The notes beneath the pieces are model-generated. The model had not been told where the DNA came from. It ran no database searches and saw only the letters and a program-made list of their open reading frames with translations. DNA of 64,000 nucleotides from sequence record OR539221.1; one strand, given 5' to 3'. The DNA is from Escherichia phage vB-Eco-KMB42. The position numbers were made by a program, and so were the translations under genes. Of this stretch, positions 21,450 to 28,650 are shown piece by piece; positions within the stretch are counted from its first letter, which is position 1; every line of letters starts with the position of its first letter.

Positions 21450-22414
21450 TGTATTCTTTAGAGGAATTTAATAATCAAGCAATAAACGCAGACTTCCAAC
21501 GTAATAATATGTTCAGCTGTGTTTTTGCTACAACTCCATCAACTAAAAGCTCATCGTTAATAAGCTCAATTAGTAACTTTGCTTATAATAACTTGGGTCT
21601 AAATTCAGATTGGTTGGGATTAACTCAAGGTGATATTAATCAGGGAATTACCACGCTAATTACTGCTGGCACACAAAAACTAATAAGAAAATCGGGAGTC
21701 AGTAAATATCTTATTGGCGCTATGAGTCAGCGTACTGTTCAGAGTTTATTAGGCTCATTTACAGTTGGTACATATTTAATTGACTTCTTTAACATGGCAT
21801 ATAACTCATCTGGATTGATGATATACTCTGTAAAAATGCCAGAGAATAGATTATCCTATGAAACTGACTGGAACTATAATTCTCCTAATATTCGTATAAC
21901 TGGAAGAGAATTAGACCCTTTGGTTATTTCATTCAGAATGGATTCAGAAGCTTGTAACTATCGTGCAATGCAAGACTGGGTTAACGCTGTTCAAGACCCA
22001 GTAACTGGATTGCGTGCTTTGCCGCAAGATGTCGAGGCAGATATTCAGGTTAATCTTCATTCTCGCAATGGATTACCTCATACTGCGGTGATGTTCACTG
22101 GATGCATTCCAATATCAGTGAGCGCTCCTGAGTTATCATATGATGGAGATAACCAAATAACTACATTTGACGTTACTTTTGCGTATAGAGTGATGCAGGC
22201 TGGAGCAGTTGATAGACAAGCTGCCCTTGAATGGCTTGAATCTGCTACTATAAATGGTATTCAAAGCGTTCTCGGAAATAGTGGAGGTGTTACTGGACTA
22301 TCTAATTCGCTTTCACGACTTAGTAGATTAGGGGGAACTGCAGGAAGCATTTCAAATATTAATACTATGACAGGAATTGTCAATTCGCAAAGTAAAATAT
22401 TAGGAGCAATATAA
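21449..22414 (+). CDS. 54: Baseplate tail tube initiator gp54
   Basis: 321 aa; overlaps gene 48 stop. Confidence 0.85.
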   Translation: MYSLEEFNNQAINADFQRNNMFSCVFATTPSTKSSSLISSISNFAYNNLGLNSDWLGLTQGDINQGITTLITAGTQKLIRKSGVSKYLIGAMSQRTVQSLLGSFTVGTYLIDFFNMAYNSSGLMIYSVKMPENRLSYETDWNYNSPNIRITGRELDPLVISFRMDSEACNYRAMQDWVNAVQDPVTGLRALPQDVEADIQVNLHSRNGLPHTAVMFTGCIPISVSAPELSYDGDNQITTFDVTFAYRVMQAGAVDRQAALEWLESATINGIQSVLGNSGGVTGLSNSLSRLSRLGGTAGSISNINTMTGIVNSQSKILGAI

Positions 22415-22418
22415 CAAT

Positions 22419-22442
22419 GGGGACCGAAAGGTCCCCATATTT
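22419..22442 (+). terminator. Rho-independent terminator after gene 54
   Basis: GGGGACC-GAAA-GGUCCCC hairpin followed by U-rich tract. Confidence 0.6.
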
Positions 22443-22733
22443 TTATTTACGGAATGAAATAAAAGCAGCAACTGAAGCAACAGAGGTTTCTTCAATATAA
22501 ACCTCAATTTTTACCGGAGCTTCTGACTCAAATTTACCTGTTACTACACCTTGGAAAATACTTTCAGTCTGTTCTGGCTTTGAAAAATTTTCAGAAGGAA
22601 AAATTCCAAACTTTTTATCGGTTCCGAAAATTTTAATAAATTCATCATAAACTGCTTCATTGAAAGCGTTATCAGCGGGAATAACGCCTTCAACGACGAG
22701 TTCTTGACCTAAAAAGCGCAAAGAAGATTTCAT
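22443..22733 (-). CDS. Hypothetical early protein
   Basis: 96-aa ORF with GAGG RBS directly downstream of a conserved early promoter. Confidence 0.6.
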   Translation of the reverse strand: MKSSLRFLGQELVVEGVIPADNAFNEAVYDEFIKIFGTDKKFGIFPSENFSKPEQTESIFQGVVTGKFESEAPVKIEVYIEETSVASVAAFISFRK

Positions 22734-22763
22734 TTTGTGTTCCTCATGTTATGTCAGTAAAAC

Positions 22764-22793
22764 TACTATAACACAATACGAGGGACTTGTAAA
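22764..22793 (-). promoter_or_regulatory. Early (sigma70-type) promoter, copy 1 of duplicated cassette
   Basis: Minus strand: GTTTAC - 18 nt - TGtTATAGT; near-identical to promoter at 38120-38149. Confidence 0.55.
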
Positions 22794-24851
22794 CTACATT
22801 TTGAACTTTTTAGACATTCCGTTGATGTTAACCAAAGAAGCTAAGATTTGAGAAACTTCGTTTTCCTCTTCTTTTGATTCTTCTACAAGGAATTGATTAA
22901 ATCCAGCCATTGGACGAACTTCACCAGTTTCCATCAGATGGTCGCCATCATATACTGATTCTTCTAATTGTTCAGAAGGAGAAACGATTGTACCTTCGAT
23001 TAGATACTTGTTATAAGCAGTTTCTTTCATCATGTACGTACTTACTTTATTAATCTTCAGTAAAATTCCACGCGGCAAAATAACTTCAGCTTCGGATGGA
23101 AATCCTGATAAATGACCTGGAACGATAACTTTAACTCGTTCAGCTCCTTTAATTACCATACCTACATTAGTTTCAGCGTCTTCATTCGCATATGTAGAAT
23201 GACTACCCATATGCATTAAATCTTCAGCATCAACTGAACCTTCTCCTTCACCAGAAAATACTGTTCCAGCGTCATCTAAAGCCATATAATTTTTACCATA
23301 TTCACCGAAGATATTTGGCTTGAGTGAAGTAGATACAAAGTTCTTGAAATAGAACATTTTATTTTCTATATTATGACGTAAAGTTTTAAAAGTAACTTCT
23401 TGGCCACGGTAAAGTGTAGTTCCCGGAGGAAGAACTGAACCTTTAGCAAATGCAGAATCCAACGTCTCAATGTGCTTAATAGCACGTTCCATATATTCTT
23501 CACGTGTAGAATCAGGTTTACCTAAAAGGAATGAGTTCATTTCAACATATGAATCTGCACAATAATCTTCAATTACATCAGATTCAGCCTGAGTTAATCC
23601 TTTTGGAGTTACTTCAGTGCTTGCATATTCATATGCCTGAGCAGCAGATTCATCAATTAATTTATAAATTCCATTCATTACAAATTGAATAATAGCTGTC
23701 TTTTCATCTGGTGTAGCTTTAGAACCTTTAACTAAATCATTGATAATTTTCTTAATAACATCAAAACTATTAGAAATATTAATATCAGCAAGATCACTTA
23801 AAATTTTATCAGTTTTATAATCAAAGAATTCTTTATTCTTTAAATATTCTTGAGAACCTTGATATGTTATATCGCTCTGCAGCTTGATAGATGGATCGCG
23901 TAAACGTGCATGGGCCAATGCAATATGATTTCGGAAGCTTTCGAGTTCATAATCACTAGATTTAAAACGAGAAGCACTTCTCATACCACCGATAGCTCCT
24001 TTGCTAAAGTTTGAACCAACCTGAATAACGCCAGAGTTCATTGGTCCTTCTGCTTTATATACCGGAACTTTAGATTCAAACTCTTGATATTTCTTAGCAG
24101 CGAAGCTATCACCCTGAAGTGAAGCATCAACAGTAGAATATTGAGCTTGCGCTGCTAATCGACGACTAATTTTAGTTTTCTGAATAACAGCTTGATCCGT
24201 GCGCTTATCATTTTCTAAAGCAATAGAAGCAGCAACAGCAACAGCTTTAGGAACAGCATTACCTGTTTTAACGTCTACATAAACATCACCAACCTTTGAT
24301 TCAACTTTTGTGAATAACTCGGTTGAAATAGGAGGTACACCTGGAATGTCTTCTAAATTGGCATTTTTACGGTAAACCATAATATATGCGTACTTTTTAT
24401 CATAATCCCAGATTTCCTTTAAAAGAACATATCGACCTGCTCCTTTAGTACGTACTAAACGGTCAGCAATAACTTGCATTTGACGAGCAGCGCCATTTGT
24501 TTTACTTTTTAGTACGCGGAATAAGCATGCATCAATTTTATACTGTTTCATTGTTTGAAGAGCAGTATCAAAAACAGCATTAATGACGCCAATTGGATTT
24601 CCACCCAAGTTTTTAAGCTTAACTAATGATAGTTTCTCATTAACACCTATCATTACGATATGCATCATTTTGTCGCCTGGCTTAACGTTTTTATTCGTAT
24701 CACCGCCAGAGGTGTATGTACAAAATCTAAATCCAGGAAGCACGCTTTCTTCACCGGCTTGAATAGCAAAAATTTGTGGTATTTTATGCTTAGGATTTAA
24801 GTTAACAACCGGCGCCGAAGCGCCGTCAAATAATTCTGTAATAAGTTCCAT
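22794..24851 (-). CDS. Alt-like ADP-ribosyltransferase paralog (685 aa)
   Basis: Starts MELITELFD like neighbour; shares N-terminal ~230 aa and C-terminal ART region (FYFKNFVSTSL; SEAEVILPRG; YDGDHLMETGE) with adjacent ORF. Confidence 0.8.
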   Translation of the reverse strand: MELITELFDGASAPVVNLNPKHKIPQIFAIQAGEESVLPGFRFCTYTSGGDTNKNVKPGDKMMHIVMIGVNEKLSLVKLKNLGGNPIGVINAVFDTALQTMKQYKIDACLFRVLKSKTNGAARQMQVIADRLVRTKGAGRYVLLKEIWDYDKKYAYIMVYRKNANLEDIPGVPPISTELFTKVESKVGDVYVDVKTGNAVPKAVAVAASIALENDKRTDQAVIQKTKISRRLAAQAQYSTVDASLQGDSFAAKKYQEFESKVPVYKAEGPMNSGVIQVGSNFSKGAIGGMRSASRFKSSDYELESFRNHIALAHARLRDPSIKLQSDITYQGSQEYLKNKEFFDYKTDKILSDLADINISNSFDVIKKIINDLVKGSKATPDEKTAIIQFVMNGIYKLIDESAAQAYEYASTEVTPKGLTQAESDVIEDYCADSYVEMNSFLLGKPDSTREEYMERAIKHIETLDSAFAKGSVLPPGTTLYRGQEVTFKTLRHNIENKMFYFKNFVSTSLKPNIFGEYGKNYMALDDAGTVFSGEGEGSVDAEDLMHMGSHSTYANEDAETNVGMVIKGAERVKVIVPGHLSGFPSEAEVILPRGILLKINKVSTYMMKETAYNKYLIEGTIVSPSEQLEESVYDGDHLMETGEVRPMAGFNQFLVEESKEEENEVSQILASLVNINGMSKKFKM

Positions 24852-24854
24852 GAT

Positions 24855-26948
24855 TTATCCTTGAACGAACTTGTAAGGCATGTTTGTAATATCTATGCAA
24901 GACGCAATAATTCCAAGAGATGATTCTACTTTCTGTTTAATATTTGATGAAACAAATGATGCAAAGTCAACTCTGTCTTCTATTTCAATATCACCTGTCA
25001 TTGCAACCAATTCACCAGTTTCCATTAAATGGTCTCCATCATAGATTACCGATTCGGTGAGCTCTTCCGTGGTCATAACTTCAGCTTGAATGAGTTTTGT
25101 ATTATTAGATGTTGTTCCGTCATTATTAGAAGCATCAGTTATTTTATTAACCTTGACCATCAATCCGCGTGGTAGAATAACTTCAGCTTCTGTTGCTATT
25201 CCGAGACTTCCTGGATATACAACATTAACTTTATGAGCTCCATCAATTGCCCATCCTATTTGAACTTTAACATATTCAGGATTTTCTTTATACGCTCTTA
25301 TTTCGTTTGGATTAATAGTTATTCCTTCTTCATTTTTATCAACTGTTAATTCGTTACGAGCTTCTGGTTCTAAAAGACCAATACCAGCATGTGTGATTCC
25401 AAAACGTCCAAAAATGATAGGAGTTAAAGAAGTAGATACAAAATTTCTGAAGTAGAACACTTTATTTTTAACTAACGCTTCATATATAGGAGCAGTCATA
25501 CTTTGAGCACGATAAACTGTAATGCCTTCTGGTATACGGTCACCATTTTCAAAAGCTGAATCTAAGTTATTTATAGCAGATTCAATTTCTTTTTCACTCA
25601 TTACATCGTATCGTTCTGGATTGTAACGACCTAAAAGAAGATTATTGATGTCAGTATATCCTGAACCGCAATATTCTCTAATGCCACGCTTTTGTGATGG
25701 AGTATATTTAGAACCATCGCGGGCAATAGTAATATCAATCATTGGACCAGCACCAATTCCAGAAAAACTGTAAATCATTCGTTTGAGGAATTTAGTTTTT
25801 GCTGCGTTCCAGGAATTTTTAGTTATTTCTTCCCAGACTTCATCTGGTTGTCCTTTACGATTTTTATTATGATTAGCAAGCCATTTATCTTTATAATCTT
25901 CAAAGAATTGATTTACAGCTGCTGCGTATTTCTCTAAACATTTTATTGAAGTAGTTGGTTCATTTTTAATTGCATTAAAAATTACTTCTTTAATTTTTTC
26001 TGAAACTTCACCGACTTGACTCATTGGAAAGAATTTATAATCATAGTGAAGTTCATCTGCCGTTCCTTCAGCAATAATTTTTGCTGCCTTTGTTTTAGAA
26101 GCTAATGAATTAATTCCAATTTTCATTTCTTCTGCTTCGGGAATTAAAGGTGCAGTAGCTGGTTTATTAAAATTAGCTGCTGTAGATTCATACTTCTGGA
26201 ATAATTCACTTTCAAATCTAGAAGATTCCAATGACTGACTTTGTGCAATTGCTCTACGGGAAATTTTAACTTTAACGATTACAGCTTGGTCAGAACGTTT
26301 ATCATTTTCTTGTGCAATTGATGCTGCAATTGCCTCATTTTTAGTTACTTGGGCTCCAGTATCTTTATTGATATAAACATCACCGACTTTCGATTCAACT
26401 TTAGTAAAGAGTTCAGTGCTAATTTCTGGAACTCCTGGAATGTCTTCTAGTGATACATTTTTACGATGTATAAGAATATATGCATACTTTTTATCGTAAT
26501 CCCAGAGTTCCTTAAGAAGGACGTATCTGCCACCTGAACGACTACGGATAAGTCTATCAGCAATAACTTGAATTTGTCTAGCTTGGCCAGCAGTTTTAGA
26601 CTTAAGAATACGAAGCATACAGGCATCAATTTTATATTGACGCATTGTTTGCATTGCAACAGTAAAAACTGAATTGATATAATTAATCGGGCTTGGACCA
26701 AGACCTTTTAATTTGGCAATTGAACCTTTAGCAGTTAATGTAAAAGGAACAATATGCATCATTTTATCGCCCATCTTTAAATCGCGATTAGTATCACCTC
26801 CAGATGTATAGGTACATAAACGAAAGCCTGGTTGTTCAATTGCATCATCAACATGAACTGAAAAAATTTGTGGTATTTTCTTCTTTGGATTTAAGTTTGT
26901 AATCGGAAGAGTAGTATCTTCGTCAAATAATTCTGTAATAAGTTCCAT
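24855..26948 (-). CDS. alt: ADP-ribosyltransferase Alt (697 aa)
   Basis: N-terminus MELITELFDEDTTLPITNL matches remembered T4 Alt; R-S-E ART hallmarks (FYFRNFVSTSL; ATEAEVILPRG); position between 54 and 30. Confidence 0.85.
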   Translation of the reverse strand: MELITELFDEDTTLPITNLNPKKKIPQIFSVHVDDAIEQPGFRLCTYTSGGDTNRDLKMGDKMMHIVPFTLTAKGSIAKLKGLGPSPINYINSVFTVAMQTMRQYKIDACMLRILKSKTAGQARQIQVIADRLIRSRSGGRYVLLKELWDYDKKYAYILIHRKNVSLEDIPGVPEISTELFTKVESKVGDVYINKDTGAQVTKNEAIAASIAQENDKRSDQAVIVKVKISRRAIAQSQSLESSRFESELFQKYESTAANFNKPATAPLIPEAEEMKIGINSLASKTKAAKIIAEGTADELHYDYKFFPMSQVGEVSEKIKEVIFNAIKNEPTTSIKCLEKYAAAVNQFFEDYKDKWLANHNKNRKGQPDEVWEEITKNSWNAAKTKFLKRMIYSFSGIGAGPMIDITIARDGSKYTPSQKRGIREYCGSGYTDINNLLLGRYNPERYDVMSEKEIESAINNLDSAFENGDRIPEGITVYRAQSMTAPIYEALVKNKVFYFRNFVSTSLTPIIFGRFGITHAGIGLLEPEARNELTVDKNEEGITINPNEIRAYKENPEYVKVQIGWAIDGAHKVNVVYPGSLGIATEAEVILPRGLMVKVNKITDASNNDGTTSNNTKLIQAEVMTTEELTESVIYDGDHLMETGELVAMTGDIEIEDRVDFASFVSSNIKQKVESSLGIIASCIDITNMPYKFVQG

Positions 26949-26972
26949 GTTATCCTCTCTAGTGTTTATTCT

Positions 26973-26980
26973 ATTTATAA
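26973..26980 (-). promoter_or_regulatory. Late promoter (TATAAATA on minus strand) for alt
   Basis: Reverse complement of TATTTATA ~25 nt upstream of alt ATG. Confidence 0.55.
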
Positions 26981-27002
26981 AATTAAAGGCCCGAAGGCCT
27001 TT
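26981..27002 (-). terminator. Stem-loop / terminator upstream of alt promoter
   Basis: AAAGGCC-UUCG-GGCCUUU hairpin on minus strand followed by U-rich tract. Confidence 0.45.
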
Positions 27003-27004
27003 AA

Positions 27005-27190
27005 TTAATAGAGAGCTAAAAGAGTACGATATACTTCAAACTTTGGACCTTTTTCATATGGATCAAATCTTTCCGTGAATTCATCATATGCTAGTTTATC
27101 TGGGAATTCAAGAATAACCTGCGATACCGCAGTGGAAACATCTCCACCTTCTTTTTGAGCCACGACAATTGTTTCTAAGTAAGCTTTCAT
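27005..27190 (-). CDS. Hypothetical small protein
   Basis: 61-aa ORF overlapping ligase gene stop by 4 nt. Confidence 0.5.
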   Translation of the reverse strand: MKAYLETIVVAQKEGGDVSTAVSQVILEFPDKLAYDEFTERFDPYEKGPKFEVYRTLLALY

Positions 27191-28650
27191 AAACCAGTTA
27201 CCTCATGAAAATCGCCAAATACATCTTCGAACGTATTAGCTTTAGTTTTATCTTCACGTAAACGAATTGCAATTGGAAGAAATAGCTTAACGTAATCAGT
27301 ACGTCCATCTAATTTTACCCAGCCGTTGCATTCGCACTCTAGAATTTTTCCAATATAATAATTTTGGTTTTCCATAATGCGAGTACGATCAAGTTCATGC
27401 GATTTTATACCGGCTTTATCTTTTAAGCCTGAACCAGCATTTACTTTAATTTTTCCACACTCTGATTCAAGAATGAAACCACCTGCTTTAGTAGGGTCTT
27501 TACGGTGAGGATAAATTCCTACAATTTTTAAATCAACATCAATTACTTCTTTAAATTTATAAAGATTTTTTGAACGAGCATTTTCCCATAATCCATCGAT
27601 ATTTTTAAGAATAATACCTTCAAGACCTTGGTCAATATACTTTTTATAAATTACCTTAGCTTCATCTAGGTTATTTACTATCTGGTTTTCAATTAAAATT
27701 ACTTTATCATAGCCTGATGTCATTTGTTCTAGTTTAGAAAAACGTACATCATATTTTAAACGAAATGCTGGAAGACCATATATTTCTACTAATGGAACAT
27801 AGTCCCAGACCTGAAACTTCATGCATTGTGCTTCTTTTTCAGAAATGGTTCCCTTTAAAGATTTATTAGCGATTCCATTAGAAGTAGTACGTGATTCAGC
27901 TACTTCGGCGAATTCTTTAGCTTTACTAATTTCAGGATAAGCATCAAAAAGAAAATCTAGGCCTTCTGGCTCCTTTTTAACCTGCTCATGGTATACCAAT
28001 TCGCCATCAATTAACACACCTTCTGGATGAATCTGGCGAGCTTCTGCAGTCATTTTGATTAACTCTTCCTTGAGAAGATCTAATCCTAGATATTCATTAC
28101 CAGCTCGTGATAAAAGACGAACATCATCTAATTCATCACCTCTGACTTCAGCAAAGCACCGAGCTCCATCAGCTTTTAACTGGGCAAAAGCTGGAAATTT
28201 AATATTCTTATTAATGCCTTTTTCATCATAAGAACTTGCCAGCATTTGAGGTTGTTCAGGAATTAAACCTGGCCAAACTTTATTTGCAATAGATACAGAA
28301 GCACCACATTCAAGGTCTCGCATCATTACTCGACGTAATACTTCAACATCATCTTTTTTACCATCGGTGATATATCCGATTAATTCCTCAATTGCCGCAT
28401 TTCCAGTCAATTTCCGAGTAGCTAACGTGAATTCAATGAAGTCAAGCATATCGGTAAGAGTCAACATTCCAAAACTCTGGGTAGTAATACCCGGTTTAGG
28501 CCATTTCTTGATATAATACTGTAACCCACGAGAATAAGTCAGACGATATACTCGTTTAAGCAATTCATTATCTTTATTCTTTTCAAGAATTGCTTGCTTC
28601 TGCTTAGTTGAACCAATAGATGCTATTTCGTTCAGAATTTTAAGAATCAT
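27187..28650 (-). CDS. 30: ATP-dependent DNA ligase gp30
   Basis: 487 aa as T4 DNA ligase; N-terminus MILKILNEIASIGSTKQKQAILEK; adenylation motif KADGAR. Confidence 0.95.
   Translation of the reverse strand: MILKILNEIASIGSTKQKQAILEKNKDNELLKRVYRLTYSRGLQYYIKKWPKPGITTQSFGMLTLTDMLDFIEFTLATRKLTGNAAIEELIGYITDGKKDDVEVLRRVMMRDLECGASVSIANKVWPGLIPEQPQMLASSYDEKGINKNIKFPAFAQLKADGARCFAEVRGDELDDVRLLSRAGNEYLGLDLLKEELIKMTAEARQIHPEGVLIDGELVYHEQVKKEPEGLDFLFDAYPEISKAKEFAEVAESRTTSNGIANKSLKGTISEKEAQCMKFQVWDYVPLVEIYGLPAFRLKYDVRFSKLEQMTSGYDKVILIENQIVNNLDEAKVIYKKYIDQGLEGIILKNIDGLWENARSKNLYKFKEVIDVDLKIVGIYPHRKDPTKAGGFILESECGKIKVNAGSGLKDKAGIKSHELDRTRIMENQNYYIGKILECECNGWVKLDGRTDYVKLFLPIAIRLREDKTKANTFEDVFGDFHEVTGL

Follow-up and report, generated by a model that had tools for sequence, protein, structure and literature searches.

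The stretch analysed here, 64 kb of the genome of Escherichia phage vB-Eco-KMB42 (OR539221.1; hereafter referred to as the window), is a genome segment of a T4-like phage (Tequatrovirus), and carries on its minus strand two adjacent open reading frames (ORFs) of the Alt family, named alt (ORF1) and alt.-2 (ORF2) throughout. I propose, with a probability of about 0.7, that this locus is the alt/alt.-2 operon of a T2/T6-like Tequatrovirus, and that it encodes two ADP-ribosyltransferases (ARTs) that are both packaged and injected, but differ in their substrates. What is known of injected phage ADP-ribosyltransferases comes almost entirely from T4, which is a deletion variant at the alt.-2 locus. 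Most T4 relatives, including T2 and T6, retain an intact and strongly conserved second Alt-family gene with packaging signatures, such that T4 lacks a conserved, probably injected enzyme that is present in T2, T6 and most relatives. The gene pair as such is not a discovery, having been annotated before in hundreds of public records.

An earlier note, made from the letters of the window alone, had described two ORFs lying head-to-tail on the minus strand, 3 nucleotides (nt) apart and behind a single TATAAATA late promoter. This arrangement and its coordinates were confirmed, with products of 697 and 685 amino acids (aa):

26972-26979, minus strand: TATAAATA, an exact match to the T4-type late promoter box, 23 nt 5' of the ORF1 ATG.
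24855-26948, minus strand: ORF1, alt, the T2/T6-type allele of an Alt-family arginine-type mono-ADP-ribosyltransferase, 697 aa.
22794-24851, minus strand: ORF2, alt.-2, an intact second Alt-family ADP-ribosyltransferase, 685 aa.

The pair occupies the position of the Alt family, between DNA ligase/alt.1 and genes 54/48, and behind a late promoter. The 3-nt spacer reads TAA-ATC-ATG, and an AAGGA Shine-Dalgarno sequence is located inside the end of ORF1. The TATAAATA, together with a hairpin upstream of it, is found at the same place in T4, T2, T6, L004 and SCS4, and the gene junction is kept too. Another exact TATAAATA lies within ORF1, at 25568-25575 on the minus strand and some 0.7 kb 5' of ORF2. 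It may serve ORF2 as an internal late promoter or have arisen by chance, the window containing 18 exact matches where about 9 are expected. Over the 4.85 kb from 22400 to 27250, the locus shares 99.0% identity with Escherichia phage vB_EcoM-BECP11 (species Tequatrovirus sf23), and 364 phage records cover at least 80% of this segment. A simple terminator scan, which missed the hairpin at 26985-27002, gave no terminator-like site between ORF1 and ORF2. As the promoter is conserved, no terminator was found to separate the genes and T4 alt is expressed late (PMC9697503), the two are probably co-transcribed.

Sequence comparison places both ORFs in the Alt family. PF03496 (ADP-ribosyltransferase exoenzyme) matches ORF1 with an E of 9.6e-38 and ORF2 with an E of 4.4e-20, and phrog_802 ('Alt-like RNA polymerase ADP-ribosyltransferase') matches both end to end, over residues 1-696 of ORF1 (E 8e-273) and 1-685 of ORF2 (E 2e-256). 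The latter is the sole family match for the middle region of ORF1, and NCBIfam has no model for either ORF. The assignment of PF26846, with PF03496, is a precomputed one, on homologs 88-98% identical to ORF2. Each product is predicted to consist of five parts, namely a 6-residue propeptide, an alpha/beta domain of about 230 aa (hereafter referred to as the N-domain), a variable helical region, a C3/VIP2-type R-S-ExE ART, and a disordered propeptide of about 55-65 aa. These are listed below, with values from the AlphaFold2 modeling of ORF2 given as predicted local distance difference test (pLDDT) and predicted template modeling (pTM) scores; ARTT designates the ADP-ribosylating toxin turn-turn loop, and gp21 the prohead protease.

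26931-26948, minus strand: ORF1 N-terminal propeptide MELITE, with a predicted gp21 cut after Glu6; identical to T4 Alt 1-6.
26235-26930, minus strand: ORF1 N-terminal alpha/beta domain, aa 7-238 (PF26846 Tevenvirinae_ADPRT); 99.6% identical to the T4 Alt segment.
25713-26234, minus strand: ORF1 variable middle, aa 239-412, for which the ORF2 model suggests, by analogy, a helical structure.
25053-25712, minus strand: ORF1 ART domain, aa 413-632, with R480, S505-T-S507 and E587-x-E589, ending at the predicted L-T-E632 site.
24855-25052, minus strand: ORF1 C-terminal propeptide, aa 633-697 (SVIYDGDHLMETGE...), and stop codon; aligned with the T4 Alt propeptide.
24834-24851, minus strand: ORF2 N-terminal propeptide MELITE, with a predicted gp21 cut after Glu6; this Glu is kept in all 20 aligned sequences.
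24138-24833, minus strand: ORF2 N-terminal alpha/beta domain, aa 7-238; pLDDT 85.4, pTM 0.83.
23607-24137, minus strand: ORF2 variable middle, aa 239-415, predicted all-helical; pLDDT mostly 65-85.
22959-23606, minus strand: ORF2 ART domain, aa 416-631, with R482, S507-T-S509, F584 (ARTT position) and E587-x-E589, ending at L-E-E631.
22794-22958, minus strand: ORF2 C-terminal propeptide, aa 632-685 (SVYDGDHLMETGE...), and stop codon; pLDDT below 50 for residues 629-671.

The catalytic residues were located by alignment to toxins of known structure, with the Arg in V/L-Y-R, the S-T-S in FVSTSL and the E-x-E in [ST]EAEVILPRG. An alignment with CdtA/iota Ia places the Arg and ExE of ORF1, and ORF2 was aligned by phmmer to Lmo0066 and Vis. 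The earlier note had named a lack of the catalytic Arg/Ser/Glu in the second paralog as an observation that would refute its reading. In ORF2, R482, S507/S509 and E587/E589 are invariant in all 20 homologs of an alignment spanning 43-95% identity to ORF2, and the R-S-E type ART fold suggested for both proteins agrees with PF03496 and with the catalytic alignments, structure prediction having been run for ORF2 only. The three motifs quoted in that note (FYF[RK]NFVSTSL, [ST]EAEVILPRG and YDGDHLMETGE) are all found in both ORFs, and two of its assignments need correction. The R/K of FYF[RK]N is not the catalytic Arg, which is R480 in ORF1 and R482 in ORF2, as aligned with CdtA/iota Ia, Vis and Lmo0066; and YDGDHLMETGE does not belong to the ART fold, as it falls after the C-terminal gp21 site (LTE-619 in T4, PMC5694885), hence in the propeptide.

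The AlphaFold2 model of full-length ORF2 contains an alpha/beta N-domain (residues ~12-225), an all-helical region (~250-470), an ART sandwich (480-622) and a disordered tail (629-685), with residues 1-9 also disordered. The divergent middle, for which structure prediction had been proposed as a check, is thus modeled as helices throughout. In a Foldseek search, the ART part of the model matched Vis, C3bot, Certhrax, CDTa and VIP2 (E 1e-6 to 1e-4, probability 1.00). The catalytic domains of ORF1 and ORF2 share their fold and active-site motifs with the C3/VIP2/iota Ia/CDTa/Vis toxins (PF03496, R-S-E clade). Delivery differs, since binary toxins employ secretion and a pore whereas the Alt family employs the phage head and DNA injection, and the N-domain is unrelated to the toxin adaptor domains. 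T4 ModA and ModB belong to the same ART clade as Alt (Alt/VIP2; PMC5512222), but in contrast to Alt they are small and early, possess neither the N-terminal domain nor the propeptides, and are not injected from the head (PMC5512222).

Over their full length, ORF1 and ORF2 are 41% identical (BLASTP, E 1e-161). By block, identity is 68% in the N-terminal part (1-238), 16% in the middle (239-415), 34% in the ART (416-625) and 45% in the tail, which agrees with the conserved ends and diverged centre described from the letters alone. Synonymous sites are saturated between the paralogs, with a synonymous divergence (dS, Nei-Gojobori) of 1.0-1.7, and of 1.7 for the N-domain, and therefore the duplication is old, and the likeness of the N-domains stems from constraint, not from recent conversion. 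Recent gene conversion as the source of the conserved N-domain is ruled out for this pair by the N-domain dS, only the first 28 nt being identical. ORF2 is in fact slightly nearer to the Alt of other phages (JS10, 48%; KM16, 47%) than to its neighbour ORF1 (41%, BLASTP).

The identical first 28 nt, at 26921-26948 in ORF1 and 24824-24851 in ORF2 (both minus strand), stand out against the saturated synonymous sites elsewhere, and suggest either selection at the level of the nucleotide sequence or translation initiation, or a very short conversion tract.

The member of the family that was studied biochemically is neither ORF1 nor ORF2 but T4 Alt (gpAlt, NAD+--arginine ADP-ribosyltransferase, 682 aa). 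It has the same genome position, late promoter, hairpin and domain order, as well as the same catalytic R/S-T-S/E-x-E and the same ITE-6 and L-x-E sites. The pairwise alignments suggested earlier give 72% overall identity to T4 Alt for ORF1 (70.7% by BLASTP), and only 41% for ORF2. ORF1 is nonetheless a different cassette allele: when compared by segment (window 24855-26948, minus strand, against L001:5455-7503), it is 99.6% identical to T4 Alt in the N-domain, 32% in the middle, 66.5% in the ART and 95% in the tail. It is 97.4% identical at the aa level to the alt of T2 and T6, and 100% identical to alt_1 of vB_EcoM-BECP11. In the phage collection, ORF1-type alleles (at least 90% identity) are present in 316 records, and T4-type alleles (roughly 70%, range 60-80%) in 212. 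Judging from these segment identities, alt is itself mosaic and has two or more cassette alleles, distinguished by their middle and catalytic regions.

Natural hybrids between alt and alt.-2 were also identified. Four of them (P0003, P0004, P0005 and P0007) are clean single-crossover hybrids, with an Alt-type N-terminal part and the rest of ORF2 type, and their crossover ranges (residues 43-54, 102-110, 174-192 and 218-224) are all within the N-domain. In the complete SCS4 phage genome, one hybrid gene, of 686 aa, is all that lies between alt.1 and alt.-3 (L005 3001-5061), and the same single-hybrid layout is seen in a Logan contig (L003 5001-7061). Some of the metagenomic cases may be assembly chimeras; SCS4 is an isolate genome, although its record contains Ns. 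With all crossovers located there, these hybrids fit an N-domain that is functionally interchangeable between Alt and ORF2.

T4 Alt is a prohead-core protein of about 40 copies that is trimmed by gp21 and injected with the DNA (PMC9958956, PMC9026906). Its cuts were mapped by mass spectrometry to ITE-6 and LTE-619, with 63 C-terminal residues lost and a mature protein of 68.2 kDa (PMC5694885). The mass that I computed for T4 Alt residues 7-619 is equal to this published value, and the site mapping is therefore right. The N-terminal MELITELFD, cut after Glu6 in T4 Alt, is identical in T4 Alt, ORF1 and ORF2. At the aligned column of the C-terminal site, ORF1 has LTE-632 and ORF2 LEE-631; this Glu never varies, and L, I or M stands 3 residues before it in 20/20 homologs. 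E631, YDGD, E641 and G643-E644 of the ORF2 tail are likewise invariant in the 20 sequences. Cleavage at these sites would yield mature proteins of 70.1 kDa for ORF1 and 69.1 kDa for ORF2. In other Tevenvirinae genera, Alt-family proteins (single-copy homologs) have been found in virions by mass spectrometry (PMC6563131, PMC13119998). From the positional identity with the sites mapped in T4, I infer, on good grounds, that ORF2 is packaged.

It is also conceivable, if unlikely, that ORF2 is active and made late but stays out of the head, acting in the producing cell in the manner of ModA/ModB, or that it is packaged without being injected. The literature, searched mostly without subscription journals, gave no proteomic detection of ORF2 in virions, and since it is not understood how Alt is directed to the prohead (PMC9958956; PMC5694885), the sequence alone is no proof of targeting. 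However, ORF2 has in common with Alt the first 9 residues, an N-domain of 68% identity and the conserved start of the C-terminal propeptide, hence each of the parts that are not catalytic, and an Alt N-domain on an ORF2 body occurs in the natural hybrids described above. Both points argue for packaging of ORF2 alongside Alt.

ORF2 shows strong purifying selection in every segment, and is therefore a working gene. The ratio of nonsynonymous to synonymous divergence (dN/dS, Nei-Gojobori) is 0.039 for the comparison with T2 (dS 0.24), 0.048 with T6 and 0.126 with an ortholog of 75% identity. Constraint extends over all four segments, with values of 0.02-0.03 for the N-domain and 0.04-0.06 for the middle. 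At 90% aa identity or more, ORF2 is present in about 402 phage records. Both T2 and T6 possess the intact pair of 697 and 685 aa, and a more distant phage contig has a pair of 697 and 694 aa, the second of which shares 75% identity with ORF2. The alt.-2 of T6, RB32 and T2 is the same gene as ORF2, of 685 aa, 98% identical at the aa level and located 3 nt after alt, with no difference of substance.

The tandem pair is thus the common state, and is already annotated, as alt.-2, alt_2, 'Alt-like' or an alt_1/alt_2 pair, in T2, T6, RB32 and hundreds of genomes. In RB32 the label is alt.-2, in T6 'alt.-2; apparent insertion in alt.-2; also similar to alt', and others read 'Alt-like RNA polymerase ADP-ribosyltransferase' or 'hypothetical protein'. 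The earlier note had named Alt as the only functionally described protein and the second paralog as a candidate second injected effector, and had missed both these annotations and the T4 remnant described below. No study of the function of the alt.-2 product was found, only a 2006 duplication note and annotations, in a search that left subscription journals mostly uncovered, so that this absence is not proof.

In T4, alt is followed after 3 nt by the small ORFs alt.-1, of 61 aa, and alt.-2, of 67 aa; the former matches ORF2 residues 1-56 at 95% identity, and the latter residues 62-116 at 98%. In the T4 GenBank note they are attributed to an old duplication of the initial part of alt, and they have been listed as paralogous duplications (Nolan et al. 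2006, PMC1524935). The T4 DNA keeps the first 348 nt of ORF2, minus one base (window position 24692), by which the frame is split, and a 1.69-kb deletion removes ORF2 codons about 117-679 (T4 junction at L001 about 5104). The ends of the deletion are marked in the window by a direct repeat:

24504-24512, minus strand: upstream copy of the 9-nt direct repeat CTAAAAAGT, left deletion end.
22805-22813, minus strand: downstream copy of the 9-nt direct repeat CTAAAAAGT, right deletion end.

By this alignment, T4 alt.-1/alt.-2 are a decayed ORF2, and ORF2 is the parent form. The 'apparent insertion' in the T6 label is backwards: there is a deletion in T4, and no insertion in T6. The T4-type junction recurs in 91 phage records, natural isolates among them, and therefore represents a natural polymorphism, not a laboratory artefact.

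This frameshifted and deleted remnant, in T4 and in the other records with its junction, would fit an ORF2 that merely duplicates alt, being redundant in its targets, or that is on its way to loss as in T4, and T4 alt itself is non-essential (PMC9026906). I nevertheless consider this quite improbable. ORF2 as a pseudogene or decaying duplicate was rejected on its dN/dS of 0.04-0.05, at a dS of 0.2-0.24, together with the invariant catalytic residues, and some 402 copies remain intact. Moreover, the two genes are old paralogs whose middles are only 16% identical, with each middle conserved among its own orthologs, a pattern unlike redundancy.

The occurrence of the N-domain elsewhere was also analysed. 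A search of 1.84 billion cluster representatives returned only 69 clusters. In these the N-domain is always N-terminal and nearly always accompanied by an ART, nearly all of the proteins are about 600-710 aa long, and those that were checked carry PF03496. The idea of a general delivery module, used on other types of effectors, was rejected on this basis, as nearly all of the clusters have the Alt architecture and a single exception, P0184, is too little. This remote homolog (541 aa) has a C-terminal part of no recognisable family, and may represent the N-domain joined to a different effector. A second remote homolog, P0183 (485 aa), has a degenerate ART, with LYK/SCS/N-x-E in place of YR/STS/E-x-E.

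In two fold searches with the N-domain, GNATs were on top, yet below significance. The segment K117-x-x-G120-x-A122 is located in a strand-helix loop, like GNAT motif A, and K117 and G120 are invariant. Close homologs have this segment; however, the last position of the acetyl-CoA pyrophosphate-binding motif of GNATs (Q/R-x-x-G-x-G/A) is a Glu in the remote homologs P0183 and P0184. Sequence and profile searches of the N-domain against Pfam and the PDB gave zero matches, even at E 10. With fold matches below significance, a cofactor motif lost in remote homologs and no Pfam or PDB match, a GNAT identity was rejected, and is at most a weak lead. It is very unlikely that the N-domain is a GNAT-like acyltransferase-type enzyme or a ligand-binding domain, with two bifunctional effectors being injected and alt.-2 reaching host or defence targets that T4 cannot; an assembly/delivery domain is the more economical reading.

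If the locus does encode two injected ARTs with different substrates, as proposed here, both genes would be transcribed late from the single TATAAATA at 26972-26979, and both proteins would enter the prohead core, where gp21 would trim them, by homology with T4 Alt, after Glu6 and at the L-x-E near residue 631. The two mature proteins would be retained in the filled head and injected with the DNA, and in the new host would transfer ADP-ribose from NAD+ onto arginines of host proteins. The shared N-domain and propeptides would then constitute a common assembly/delivery part, while the helical region, which has diverged, and the loops of the active site, such as the one with Phe584 in ORF2, would direct the two enzymes to different substrates. 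In sum, the sequence shows the structure of the genes, their place in the family, catalytic and cleavage motifs that are intact, purifying selection, a wide conservation and the deleted remnant in T4, whereas I infer co-transcription, packaging, processing, injection, arginine specificity and distinct targets for ORF2 by analogy with T4 Alt and from the sequence features above; that the middle region has a role in target choice is an assumption.

In C3/VIP2-type ARTs, the E-x-E goes with arginine-specific protein modification. That ORF2 would instead modify something other than protein or arginine, for instance RNA, DNA or a small molecule, or attach NAD-capped RNA like T4 ModB, is most improbable since it retains the E-x-E, even though ARTs of the same clade vary widely in their substrates, as with the RNAylation by ModB (PMC10468400), and the ARTT position, 3 residues before the first Glu, differs between ORF2 (Phe584), ORF1 (Ile) and T4 Alt (Pro). 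As to protein targets, T4 Alt has been reported to act on MazF (Alawneh et al. 2016, as cited in PMC9697503).

Several points weigh against the proposal of two injected enzymes with distinct targets. The earlier note had taken MELITELFD to fit the gp21 motif, and both proteins do carry ITE-6 as mapped in T4 Alt (PMC5694885); however, L/I-x-E is short, with 7-11 occurrences in each protein, and is weak alone; because of this frequency the packaging argument rests on positional identity with the mapped T4 sites. The full-length ORF2 model, on which the view of the middle region draws, is of moderate quality, with a mean pLDDT of 68.6. ORF2 is also dispensable in nature, as illustrated by T4, the records with the T4-type deletion, and one phage with a single hybrid gene. 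Finally, no virion proteomics, activity assay or mutant phenotype for ORF2 was found in the literature, searched mostly without subscription journals.

The remaining features of the locus are as follows:

27187-28650, minus strand: DNA ligase gene.
27005-27190, minus strand: alt.1 homolog, 61 aa.
26985-27002, minus strand: hairpin AAAGGCCTTCGGGCCTTT, G+C-rich, followed by a T-rich run; read from the sequence.
22765-22793, minus strand: sigma-70/T4-early-like promoter (TTTACA, 17 nt, TATAGT, with TG), between ORF2 and the alt.-3 homolog.
22443-22733, minus strand: alt.-3 homolog, a 96-aa DUF5498 protein.

The gene order on the minus strand is therefore DNA ligase, alt.1 homolog, hairpin, TATAAATA, ORF1, 3-nt spacer, ORF2, early-like promoter and alt.-3 homolog, and the baseplate genes 54 and 48 come next, on the opposite strand. 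No tRNA genes (ARAGORN) and no Rfam family above its gathering score were found in the whole window (1-64000). The hairpin, directly before the late promoter, is likely the terminator of the upstream ligase/alt.1 unit. Given the promoter at 22765-22793, the alt.-3 homolog probably has its own, earlier expression.

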